Shown here: positions 15,001 through 18,000 of the stretch, in pieces
Layout: the number at the start of each line of letters is the position of its first letter
Position numbering within the stretch: position 1 is the stretch's first letter
Virus record (IMG/VR): IMGVR_UViG_2606217106_000020
Origin: a virus
Lineage: Duplodnaviria; Heunggongvirae; Uroviricota; Caudoviricetes
Strand: one strand, 5' to 3'
DNA: 41,681 nucleotides
Position numbers: made by a program

Positions 15001-18000
15001 TTGCTTCCACGTTGGCGGTGGTAACAGCAACGAGACGCCTGGTACGCGAGATCAGCAACGGAAAATTCCGTTACAAAATGCCTGATGTCGAAAACGGCGA
15101 TTTGAGCGCTTTATCATCGCAGAATAAGCAATCACACCATGACGCAGAAAACAGCGCGGCAGGCGATGAAATGAATCGTTTTCCGTTGGCATCAGAGAGC
15201 ACGGCAAAGGCCAGTACAGATGAGTTTATCCGAGAAGTTCCATCATTCACCGAAAAATCTGCCAGTTCGGTGATGCTTCCATCGCTGCATGCTGCCAGTC
15301 GAGAACTTCGTCGCGCCAAAAAACAGGTCCAGAAGTGGGAGCGAGTCTGCGCCGCGCTGCGGGAGCTGAACAAGCACCGGGATATTGTTCGACAGATTGT
15401 CGATTCATCCGGTCGTATTGTGTCGGAAAAGTGATTGCCGGAGGCGCTTATGGCGAAACCTTTTACACACGAACAGCGGGAAGAACTGAAGGCACGAATT
15501 ATCGGATTGGTACGCAAAAATGAACGCATGACGATATCGCAACTGGAGAGAGCGACGGGAGCAGGCTGGCATTCAGTCAGACGTTGCCTTGTGGATGTAC
15601 TGGCTTGTGGCGATTTATACATGTCCGGTAAATACGGTGTTTTTGCATCAGAACAGGTGTATCGCGTATGGCGTAAGACACCGGAGAAAACAACTGACCA
15701 GACATTGATTCGAAAGTTACCAGACGGAGAAATTCGCCGCTACGATAGACGCCTGAACATAATCTGTCGCGAGTGCCGGAATAGTGAAGTTATGCAGCGC
15801 GTGCTGGCTTTCTATCAGGGGAATTTTCAGGAGGCGGTACTGTGAGTAAATTAGCTATCAGGCTTCAATTGTCGCTGGCATTCGCATCAAAGGAGAATGA
15901 GATGACCACTTTTACAAAAGAGCAGTTAATCAGTCATGTTAGTGAAAATGTAAAGGCGATGAAATTTGCAGTAAAACAGACAGCATTCAAAAATTCTCTC
16001 GAGGCAATTGAGTTGGATTTAGCACTGGCCCTTGTTGCTCAGGCTTCGCTGGAAGCAGAGCCCGTGCTTTATATGAATCGATTTACCGGAAAGACATTCT
16101 CACTGGAAGAGCAACCCGGTGCTGATAAGGAACCGGAAATATACGTGCCGCTATATGCTGCCCCGCCAGACAGCGCCGCCATGCTTCAGGCTGGAAACTT
16201 TCGGGAAAAGAAGGGTTCGTCAACCAATAATTTTCGGGAAATCTCGGAAACGTCAACCAACCATCCGGTAACTCTGGATGGTTGGATAAGCTGTAGTGAG
16301 CGAATGCCGGATGACGGTCAGCACGTAATTATTTTATGTGATGGCGCATTCGTTCTTTATGCGCAATATCGAGACGGTGAGTTTTTTGATGTAGTCCGTG
16401 ATGGTGATGAATTTTTCGAAACACAGAGCCGCAATGTAACCGACTGGATGCCGCTACCAGAACCGCCGCAGGAGGTGCGCCAATGAACTGGCCTGAAGCA
16501 TTTGCAATTACAGGCGTTGCTATGGCTATCACTTTTTTAGTATATGTTATTTGTCGGTGGGGGTAAAAACGTTCGCCGGGATTAACACCAAAGGAGGGAA
16601 TATGTCGGATGATATATCACTGGCAATGGAAGGTGCGCTGGCTGTTATTGCTGTTGTGGGCGTTTACTGCCTGGTTGTGTTTTTGATGGATCGACTAGGG
16701 AACTGAATTCATTACGATATGGGAATTCCCATATCGGGTAAAAACGGTTTGCGGTAAAGCGAGAGTTAAGTAGAATTGCTGCGGGTGCTTGAGGCTGTCT
16801 GCCTCGGGCATGCCACCGTAAGGCAGACAGAGAAAAACCCCAGTTAACATTACGCGTCCTGCAAGACGCCTAACATTAATCTGAGGCCAATTTCATGCTA
16901 GACACATGTAGGTTAGCCTCTTACGCGCCGAAAGGCAAGGAGAAGCAGGCTATGAAGCAGCAAAAGGCGATGTTAGTCGCCCTGATCGTCATCTGTATTA
17001 CCGTCGTAGTGACGGCACTGGTAACGAGGAAAGACCTCTGCGAGGTACGAATCCGAACCGGTCAGACGGAGGTTGCTGTCTTCACAGCTTACGAACCTGA
17101 GGAGTAAGAGACCAGGCGAGGGAGAAATCCCTCGCCACCTCTGATGTGTCAGGCATCCTCAACGCACCCGCACTTAACCCGCTTCGGCGGGTTTTTTCAC
17201 TTACTGTGGTTGTGAATACGATTGGTATTAGGCTATGCTAACAACATTAGCCTGACTAATTTTGTATTGACTTGATTTTTGTTAAAGAACAGGACGGAGA
17301 AGTAAGGGTACACCCAATGAGCTACGCACTAAAAAAACACCCGCGATTGACTATTCCCCCTCGCGATAAAAGCGTTGTGGCAGCTCCGCGCCCGGCTATC
17401 GATGAAAATTGCACTCATCGTGAGCAGGTGAAAAATGCTTTCGATTTCGGTTTTTCTCGTTACGAGAAGGCAATGGAAGAACTTTCAAAAGTGTAATGAT
17501 GGGTATTGTGCTCTATGGCTGATATTGTTGAAGGAGTGCACTACCTTTCGTTTGATGATCTTACCGAAATTAATCGCCTTTTAATTGAGCTTCAAACACC
17601 AGATGAACCTGTTAGTGTGCTGAGTGTTGATAATTTAAGTTCTTCTCAGTCTCGTCCCAGCATGGTTCGATGGTATGAACAGACTAATGACATGTTTGTA
17701 CTGGCATCAGTATTGATTGAAAGTCTGATTCAGAATCATCCATTTGCTAATGCAAACAAACGAACAGCTATGATGGCTGGTTATGTCTTCTTGTTGTTGA
17801 ATGGCTATGAGTTAACAGCACCAGGCGATGAAATCGTGGAAATGGCAGAGGGACTGGCCTGCAAAACCTATACTCGAGAAGATCTCGAGAACTGGTTGTG
17901 TTATTGGTCTCGTGCGTATGACGGCCGGGAATTATGTAAAACAGGCGCAACTGTTGTTTTGTATGAAACTATCAAGCTTAAAATAGAACAGCAAAACTAA

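Follow-up and report, generated by a model that had tools for sequence, protein, structure and literature searches.

In the lambdoid prophage recorded as IMGVR_UViG_2606217106_000020 (Caudoviricetes), of which a stretch of 41,681 nt was analyzed as a whole (hereafter the window), two short open reading frames (ORFs) encoding hydrophobic peptides, ORF1 and ORF2, and a perfect palindrome are found one after the other between a DUF551 gene and a hok toxin locus. These are probably two genuine small genes and one structured DNA or RNA element, which together with hok/sok constitute a mobile cassette of ~0.7 kb in lambdoid prophages and play the roles proposed below. All three elements are conserved, both ORFs are under codon-level selection, ORF2 is linked to hok and ORF2 is translated. 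ORFs as short as 27 and 34 codons readily arise by chance, and it is because of conservation, codon-level selection and published ribosome profiling (RIBOseq) that ORF1 and ORF2 are regarded as more than that. The elements are the following:

16470..16475, + strand: Shine-Dalgarno sequence AGGAGG of ORF1, 7 nt before the ATG and within the DUF551 coding sequence, with the same layout in relatives
16483..16566, + strand: ORF1, 27 amino acids (aa), MNWPEAFAITGVAMAITFLVYVICRWG, a single hydrophobic helix, without RefSeq annotation
16591..16598, + strand: Shine-Dalgarno sequence AAGGAGGG of ORF2, conserved across all type-A copies
16602..16706, + strand: ORF2 (type A), 34 aa, MSDDISLAMEGALAVIAVVGVYCLVVFLMDRLGN, identical to RefSeq WP_001278450.1 and to Sakai ECs_5710 and contained in the RIBOseq small ORF (sORF) XECs145
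16715..16736, no strand assigned: perfect palindrome CGATATGGGAATTCCCATATCG, 22 bp, with a 9-bp stem and an AATT loop, spanning about -68 to -47 relative to the start of hok transcription

An initial annotation of the window had placed both ORFs here, with ORF1 overlapping the DUF551 stop codon (ATGA) and ORF2 following a strong ribosome-binding site, and had assigned a single transmembrane helix to each product. All these points hold, the helices as a prediction, with each peptide containing one hydrophobic segment of 19 residues with a mean Kyte-Doolittle value of 2.3 in ORF1 and of 2.7 in ORF2. The palindrome had been described as a perfect one of 20 bp lying directly downstream; position and perfection are as described, and the length is to be corrected to 22 bp.

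Relatives of both peptides were sought by back-translated DNA patterns and by tblastn. In the case of ORF2, a pattern based on the C-terminus retrieved 165 copies, which fall into two subfamilies with one bridging variant, namely type A (MSDDISLAMEGALAV...YCLVVFLMDRLGN, the form present in the window) and type B ((V/M)LVLKCALAIAAVMAIYCLAVVLMDRLSD). Both are single-helix peptides of 29–34 aa with the common core YCLxxVLMD[RH]L, and the two types share ~44% amino-acid identity. The frame is intact in 31 of the 32 distinct haplotypes, and the ratio of nonsynonymous to synonymous polymorphism (pN/pS) is 0.24 in type A (0.79 and 1.50 in the control frames) and 0.35 in type B (0.62 and 0.96 in the controls). 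Nothing credible was found for ORF2 in Pfam, PHROGs and NCBIfam, and an exhaustive HMMER search of 1.84 billion representatives with ORF2 as query returned 7 close relatives only and no distant family. A full-text literature search with the peptide strings found no paper. ORF2 has nevertheless been recorded before, both as a hypothetical protein and as a RIBOseq/Ribo-RET hit.

Ribosome profiling, named in the initial annotation as a means of verification, was found for ORF2 only, from published work on near-identical or homologous loci and not on this strain. In the RIBOseq study of E. coli O157:H7 Sakai (Huecker et al., 2017; PMC5597208), the final portion of the novel intergenic sORF XECs145 coincides exactly with ORF2. 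In lysogeny broth (LB) this sORF shows 79 reads per kilobase per million (RPKM) in the transcriptome and an RPKM of 346 in the translatome, with a ribosome coverage value (RCV) of 4.35 and a coverage of 0.99, while the RCV is 1.14 in brain heart infusion (BHI) and 0.01 under combined stress (PMC5597208). The product is predicted there to be an inner-membrane protein with one transmembrane helix (PMC5597208, S2, S3, S8, and S10 Tables). The XECs145 locus belongs to prophage Sp6, is 97.6% identical to the window across 795 nt without gaps, and is now annotated as ECs_5710. Furthermore, for the type-B peptide VLVLKCTLAIVAVMAIYCLVIVLMDHLSD of BL21(DE3), a retapamulin-mapped initiation peak is reported at the GTG (13 counts, fraction 1; PMC11188072, Table S4), along with 38 footprint reads, and its cluster, Escherichia_98807, has a ratio of nonsynonymous to synonymous substitutions (dN/dS) of 0.46, that is, purifying selection (PMC11188072). 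In BL21 this type-B ORF, 214 nt upstream of hokD, carries no annotation. The data show translation of ORF2 in lysogens, and with its predicted topology ORF2 represents a genuine gene for a 34-aa single-helix inner-membrane microprotein.

In BL21(DE3), an annotated DUF977 coding sequence (NC_012971.2, 1591485-1591844, within locus L433, 1591437-1591844, - strand) overlaps about the first 13 codons of the type-B ORF2 (1591437-1591524); one of the two boundaries may be wrong, or the gene overlap may be genuine. Type B also has a conserved promoter-like element of its own (TTGAAT-17-CATATT), and no terminator precedes hok.

As to ORF1, this ORF is tied to the gene upstream of it and has no specific relation to hok. 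Its start codon overlaps the DUF551 stop in the ATGA at 16483-16486, and its Shine-Dalgarno sequence is contained in the C-terminal codons of DUF551 (PPQEVRQ). The back-translated pattern identified 124 ORF1-type copies in viral contigs, of which 107 form an ATGA junction with the upstream stop and 13 a junction of the TAATG type (120/124 together), which supports the coupling of ORF1 to DUF551 suggested at the outset. The genes preceding the relatives are varied and comprise DUF551 proteins with different bodies, Ea22-type coiled coils and, in GC-rich phages, others; divergent relatives stand behind other genes with neither ORF2 nor hok downstream. The peptides begin with M-x-W-P-E/D-A-F-A-I, continue with one variable hydrophobic helix, and measure 22–34 aa overall. 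When 22 diverse members are aligned, M1, P4, and A6 never vary and W3 and F7 are conserved in at least 90%. Some ORF1-type peptides with a relaxed motif, e.g., MSWPDAIVTLGMVFAVAFVVYSICRWG, were encountered in a sample anchored on the DUF551 C-terminus and not on the motif. Among 36 distinct haplotypes of 27 codons, pN/pS is 0.32 in frame, compared with 0.91 and 1.61 in the shifted frames (pS 0.45).

The family is uncatalogued. For ORF1 and the 22 diverse relatives nothing credible was found in Pfam, PHROG, and NCBIfam, and the exact ORF1 sequence is missing from a collection of 15 billion predicted proteins, which means that gene callers never call it. By tblastn, relatives were detected in 92 phage records, including 933W, VT1/VT2-Sakai, BP-4795, the P1-like SJ46 and 813R1, and the virulent Vequintavirinae phage Av-05, so lambdoid, Punavirus, and Vequintavirinae genomes are represented; they were also detected in 196 plasmids, mostly of ~90-115 kb and non-mobilizable, which is the size and type of P1-like phage-plasmids. 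A scan of species-representative genomes with the ORF1 pattern gave 26 matches, nearly all of them coincidental within large proteins and none in enteric representatives, and did not widen the known range past phage and prophage DNA. Since these matches are essentially due to chance, the family is to be considered accessory and phage-borne. ORF1 can thus be described, with its predicted topology, as a genuine single-helix membrane peptide gene of an uncatalogued phage-wide family. Outside enterics, a contig of a Pseudobdellovibrionaceae metagenome-assembled genome (L408; CAZFPB010000007.1, - strand, ~7630-7655) contains a 65-aa ORF that starts with MTWPEAFAIVGVAFATGASIAAVVWACV... after GGGAGG, and which may represent a distant ORF1 relative extended by a long tail at the C-terminus.

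The palindrome is the longest perfect one in the window and is unique there even when 3 mismatches are allowed (0 expected). It lies 8 nt past the ORF2 stop codon and 11 nt ahead of the inferred -35 box of hok. As RNA it folds with a free energy (dG) of -17.6 kcal/mol (z -4.4) on the + strand, the - strand being similar. Together with its left flank ATTCATT it accompanies hok behind at least four unrelated upstream genes, never behind type-B ORF2. The loop is freely variable (AATT to CATT, GATT, AATC, or AAT), and the stem has undergone one compensatory AU->GC change and three single changes, all C->T in the 3' arm, for which G.U pairs are possible only in + strand RNA. Rfam has no match for the palindrome. 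The stretch occurs in 633 complete E. coli genomes, where it is seen only beside hok and is not a dispersed multi-copy repeat. Conservation in related prophages, to which the initial annotation had pointed as a further check, is therefore found for the three elements, in the form of frame-specific purifying selection on both ORFs and of the retention of the palindrome behind unrelated genes. Two other identities for the palindrome were considered and rejected: an end hairpin like those of IS200/IS605 elements, given that the adjacent TTAC is not conserved and no transposase is present, and an ARG box or another known operator consensus, for which no match was seen by eye.

The most distinctive feature of ORF2 is its linkage to hok. 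Among the copies with enough flanking sequence, hok follows ORF2 on the same strand in 146 of 151 cases, that is, in 80/85 for type A (at ~249 nt) and in 66/66 for type B (at ~215 nt); in the window, ORF2 terminates at 16706 and hok begins with the ATG at 16953. The linkage is one-way (ORF2 implies hok, not the reverse), because hok occurs without ORF2. In fact, in a hok-anchored sample the flank may consist of ORF1, ORF2A, and the palindrome; of ORF2B alone; of ORF1 directly, as in 933W; of the palindrome alone (PPompW and two other contexts); or of none of them. ORF2 fills the slot 5' of the hok promoter in roughly half of the prophage hokW/hokD-type loci. Plasmids carrying ORF2 number only 6. 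A one-way linkage of this kind fits a shared history or a hok-dependent accessory role. A 2025-26 survey of Hok diversity and location (10.1101/2025.08.07.668861) makes no mention of the ORF2-hok linkage, of ORF1 or of the palindrome, and neither this survey nor the paper on hokW-sokW (PMC8621323) contains anything on upstream peptides, palindrome, or hok promoter. Some hok loci among the hok-anchored viral ones retain only six codons of type-B ORF2 (ATGGATCACCTTTCTGATTGA, MDHLSD*), preceded by a new GAAGGAG, which indicates recombination joints within ORF2.

The modular character of the region emerges from its variants. Upstream of ORF2-A the 3' two-thirds of ORF1 are always present, and the copies first scored as ORF1-less hold an intact variant of 25 aa. 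The partner gene switches exactly at the 5' end of ORF1, and what follows, from the 3' part of ORF1 through ORF2A and the palindrome to hok, is constant; ORF1-ORF2A-palindrome-hok therefore moves as one unit of ~0.7 kb. The cassette stretch was found in 672 of 5,426 complete E. coli genomes (12%), in 1,467 copies. Compared with 933W, in which an ORF1 relative abuts the same hok promoter, the window has ~176 bp extra, corresponding to ORF2 and the palindrome, and a direct repeat of 11 bp flanks this segment on both sides (a direct search gave 2 copies in the window vs. 0.01 expected):

16561..16571, + strand: direct repeat GGGTAAAAACG, copy 1, running imperfectly into a degenerate copy of the hok -35 region
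16736..16746, + strand: direct repeat GGGTAAAAACG, copy 2

Moreover, the ORF2 Shine-Dalgarno sequence AAAGGAGGG aligns with AAAGGAGAG in the spacer of the 933W hok promoter. The bracketing repeat suggests either a duplication or insertion in the type of the window or a deletion between the repeats in the 933W type.

A number of observations weigh against the interpretation of these elements as two genes and a structured element. Regarding ORF2, the XECs145 frame has an ATA start without Shine-Dalgarno sequence and extends over the final 8 codons of ORF1, multi-mapping of the RIBOseq reads is possible given several near-identical copies in Sakai, and the promoter scan gave no convincing + strand sigma-70 promoter upstream of ORF2-A. 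The ORF1 sets were partly ascertained by the motif itself, and the first 5 codons served to find the sequences of the selection test; some copies carry a premature stop, POCJ13 and 75/02 having a TAG at codon 3; and no direct evidence of ORF1 translation was found among the supplementary entries covered from published profiling studies, where its 84 bp may fall under the limit of the Sakai study. As for the palindrome, no T-run follows it (the downstream sequence is GGGTAAAAACGG), it was not listed by the terminator scan, and it does not qualify as an intrinsic terminator. A mismatch in the stem occurs in one variant, and one arm is shortened by 1 nt in ten loci; the covariation is not significant in an underpowered analysis, 103 of 500 shuffles being as good. 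Its distance from the -35 box varies by ~24 bp between variants, which leaves both the hairpin and the operator role tentative, and the few covarying changes do not decide between an RNA hairpin and a protein-binding site.

The following mechanism is proposed. Ribosomes would probably reach ORF1 by translational coupling from the upstream gene, through the ATGA overlap and the Shine-Dalgarno sequence in the upstream tail, so the peptide, with its conserved and presumably interfacial N-terminal motif, would be expressed together with whichever early gene precedes it. ORF2 would be an accessory passenger 5' of the hok promoter, expressed in the lysogen, which modulates a membrane protein or possibly Hok and does not act as a toxin. 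By analogy with known small membrane proteins, binding to a larger membrane protein would be the likeliest mode of action of both peptides. The palindrome would form the 5' edge of one form of the hok module, most likely as a stable hairpin in + strand transcripts arriving from upstream, and this hairpin might serve as a 3'-end stabilizer or as a barrier separating upstream transcription from the hok promoter.

It is possible, although unlikely, that the palindrome is instead a DNA operator through which a dimeric regulator of host or phage origin controls the hok promoter, and not an RNA hairpin. A perfect 22-bp dyad centered ~57 bp upstream of the inferred hok start, beside the -35 box, would suit this function, all the more so as the palindrome travels with hok and not with ORF2 and as the symmetric double change keeps the half-sites alike. 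However, each locus has a single copy and the rest of the 41.7-kb window has no other, the shifting distance to the -35 box is awkward for an operator, many hok loci with the same promoter core have no palindrome, and the single-arm changes break the DNA symmetry yet keep G.U pairing in the RNA. Likewise, no candidate regulator was identified. That the palindrome is a functionless hitch-hiker would be a further, less favored possibility.

The initial annotation had also considered that the peptides belong to the regulatory context of hok. This stands insofar as ORF2 and the palindrome are linked to hok far above chance, and fails insofar as they lie outside the hok mRNA, an identical Hok occurs without them, and ORF1 is unrelated to hok. 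The hok transcript starts at ~16783, the palindrome ends at 16736 and ORF2 at 16706; with position 1 of the Rfam model of the hok leader falling on 16783, both ORF2 and the palindrome precede the transcript and are not among the regulatory elements of the hok mRNA (tac, fbi, ucb/dcb, Sok target). The idea that ORF2-type microproteins are partners of Hok, as membrane inhibitors or enhancers or as a second layer of control, is rather improbable; if it were true, a subset of hok/sok loci would be three-component systems. It draws on the near one-way linkage, maintained at a fixed distance despite the divergence of types A and B, on the fact that ORF2 and Hok are both single-helix inner-membrane peptides, on the translation of ORF2 in lysogens, where Hok must stay silent, and on the type-B transcripts, in which no terminator comes before hok. 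Against it, the identical Hok protein is found behind every flank type, ORF2-less and palindrome-less loci included, so that there is no co-variation. The hokW-sokW locus of the Sp5/933W type, which has neither ORF2 nor palindrome, works as a complete toxin-antitoxin system (PMC8621323). Identical Hok with and without these elements and a functional hokW-sokW without both indicate that neither is required for hok regulation. Furthermore, plasmid hok loci are essentially without ORF2; ORF1-ORF2A-palindrome is retained after the loss of hok in a few loci (at least two distinct ones, L076 and L116); and in an RNA duplex test the upstream region of the window showed no complementarity to hok mRNA beyond that of shuffles. 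An elaborated version can be given little probability: here ORF2 would be a dedicated Hok modulator at the membrane, for instance a protein antidote to leaky Hok in lysogens or a potentiator during induction, the palindrome would be an insulator setting the relative expression of the components, and the W-P-E-A-F head of ORF1 would target a host membrane protein. The possibility that ORF2 is a truncated Hok paralogue was rejected, as it has no HOK_GEF match.

Similarly doubtful is the proposal, in part already made in the initial annotation, that at least one of the peptides is a toxic or lysis-type membrane peptide (type-I-toxin-like or holin-like) or a superinfection-exclusion factor. Size, hydrophobicity, and single helix are indeed like those of type I toxins, the prophage region is dense in toxin-antitoxin modules, and ORF1, to judge from its position, would be made with early lytic genes. 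The ribosome occupancy of ORF2, however, is high in healthy growing lysogens, in LB and to a lesser extent in BHI, so its translation is not silent and the generic label of type I toxin does not fit it on this point, and the value reached in LB argues against a potent toxin at native expression levels and weakens the proposal for ORF2. Neither peptide matches HOK_GEF (E<=1) or another toxin family. The antisense promoter-like matches are weak (9/12) and at background frequency (3 vs. 2.2 expected), and the relevant sequence does not recur in type B; the Rfam antitoxin matches in the stretch are those of hok/sok only.

Finally, it is scarcely credible that the ORFs are chance frames in intergenic filler and the palindrome a functionless recombination scar, a view already largely refuted for ORF2: ORFs of this length are indeed common by chance, the bracketing repeat suggests illegitimate recombination, and palindromes of at least 22 bp arise in 3 of 200 mononucleotide shuffles of the window (1.5%), yet the selection on both ORFs is frame-specific, both frames have been kept over 25-56% amino-acid divergence with conserved Shine-Dalgarno sequences and junctions, ORF2 has ribosome footprints and a mapped initiation site, and the palindrome stays perfect while its flanks vary.

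The hok locus downstream comprises the following features:

16748..16776, + strand: inferred hok promoter, with the -35 box TTTGCG/TTGCGG at ~16748-16754 and the -10 box TAGAAT at 16771-16776, deduced from the leader start and from the conservation of AGTTAAGTAGAAT across hok loci
16783..16957, + strand: hok mRNA leader (Sok-targeted region), Rfam RF01794, 110 bits, E=6e-26, model positions 1-157
16895..17107, + strand: mok (70 codons), in the same frame as hok, Pfam HOK_GEF E=1.4e-23 and mokW/hokW annotation of 933W
16953..17107, + strand: hok (51 aa), RefSeq hokD
17176..17193, + strand: terminator hairpin and T-run ending the hok transcript, from the terminator scan

A simple promoter scan did not list the inferred hok promoter. 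Although RF01794 is named "sok antitoxin," its alignment is on the + strand and begins with base 1 of the hok leader; here it marks the strand of the hok mRNA and not the antisense Sok RNA. The hok 3' untranslated region and terminator (17116-17197, + strand) give a sub-threshold Rfam match to the Hfq-binding small RNA isrK over the full model length (31 bits vs. a gathering threshold of 50, E=1e-4).

From a genomic perspective, the 1.36 kb around ORF1 and ORF2 match a prophage found in E. coli O104:H4 and related strains at 99.9% identity. On identical DNA, RefSeq gives the order replication genes, DUF1627, DUF977, DUF551, a 105-bp "hypothetical protein" (WP_001278450.1), hokD, Doc-type and RelE-type toxin modules, and ninB. 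The gene preceding ORF1 is:

15902..16486, + strand: DUF551 gene, Pfam PF04448, E=1.1e-20, RefSeq coding sequence on identical DNA

Loci anchored on the DUF551 C-terminus show that many different genes can come after DUF551, ORF1-type peptides being a minority. Other unrelated tiny hydrophobic ORFs often fill this slot, e.g., MALFIAGAVIGGCLTWLACWYNRKDY and MMNKCNALLYAMVIGFGLAAGIRVYIAWESLINLAWSAIRG (viral contigs L225, L216/L301, L238, and L259), and a small membrane peptide behind DUF551 may be a recurring theme beyond the ORF1 family. With hok counted, three toxin-antitoxin-type modules follow one another between the replication genes and ninB according to RefSeq on identical DNA: directly 3' of hok, a small ORF and a toxin of the Doc (death-on-curing) family (17317-18000, + strand), and then a helix-turn-helix protein with a toxin of the RelE/ParE family (about 18051-18680, - strand).

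What these data add is modestly new, namely the uncatalogued phage-wide ORF1 family, the near-obligate one-way association of ORF2 with hok, and the modular make-up of the cassette. In kind, the biology is familiar: small membrane proteins of a prophage and a structured element forming a boundary next to a toxin-antitoxin locus. Annotation systematically overlooks small membrane proteins, and ORF1 and ORF2 are two such cases; a simple family model would allow ORF1, which RefSeq leaves unannotated in this prophage, to be annotated. ORF2 is found in 12% of complete E. coli genomes, among them those of the O104:H4 and O157:H7 outbreak lineages. The translation of ORF2 and its rarity apart from hok raise the testable question of a protein-level accessory in prophage hok loci. 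If the linkage is historical only, the region would offer a clean example of how tiny modules (peptide, hairpin, and toxin locus) are shuffled at microhomologies in prophage mosaics.

Among the systems already described, the closest is XECs145/ECs_5710 of Sakai, which is identical to ORF2, lies in Sp6 in the same order DUF551-ORF1-ORF2-palindrome-hok, and is reported as translated and of the inner membrane (PMC5597208). It differs in the longer frame adopted, and the tables and passages dealing with XECs145 give no function, hok linkage, ORF1, or palindrome (PMC5597208). The Entero67K cluster Escherichia_98807 of The Cryptic Bacterial Microproteome (PMC11188072) corresponds to type-B ORF2, with which it shares YCLxxVLMD[RH]L and the place upstream of BL21 hokD; with respect to ORF2 of the window it has ~44% identity, a GTG start, its own promoter-like element, and no adjoining palindrome or ORF1. 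That study, too, makes no mention of the hok linkage, ORF1, or the palindrome. The neighboring locus of the window is a member of the hok/sok loci, whereas the three elements described here do not form part of the hok transcript, are recognized by no Hok model, and are either lacking or optional in loci that function. Like REP-type or 3'-UTR (untranslated region) stabilizing hairpins and intrinsic terminators, the palindrome is a stable GC-containing stem-loop, located 8 nt after a stop codon, but it differs from them in having no T-run or Rfam match and in being confined to the vicinity of hok instead of dispersed. AcrZ, MgtS, MgrB, and CydX are examples of small E. coli proteins with a single membrane pass that act as modulators of larger membrane proteins. 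ORF1 and ORF2, which reside on mobile prophage DNA, have no sequence similarity to them, yet they would resemble them in size class, in the single hydrophobic helix, in the strong Shine-Dalgarno sequence, and in having long been overlooked by annotation.

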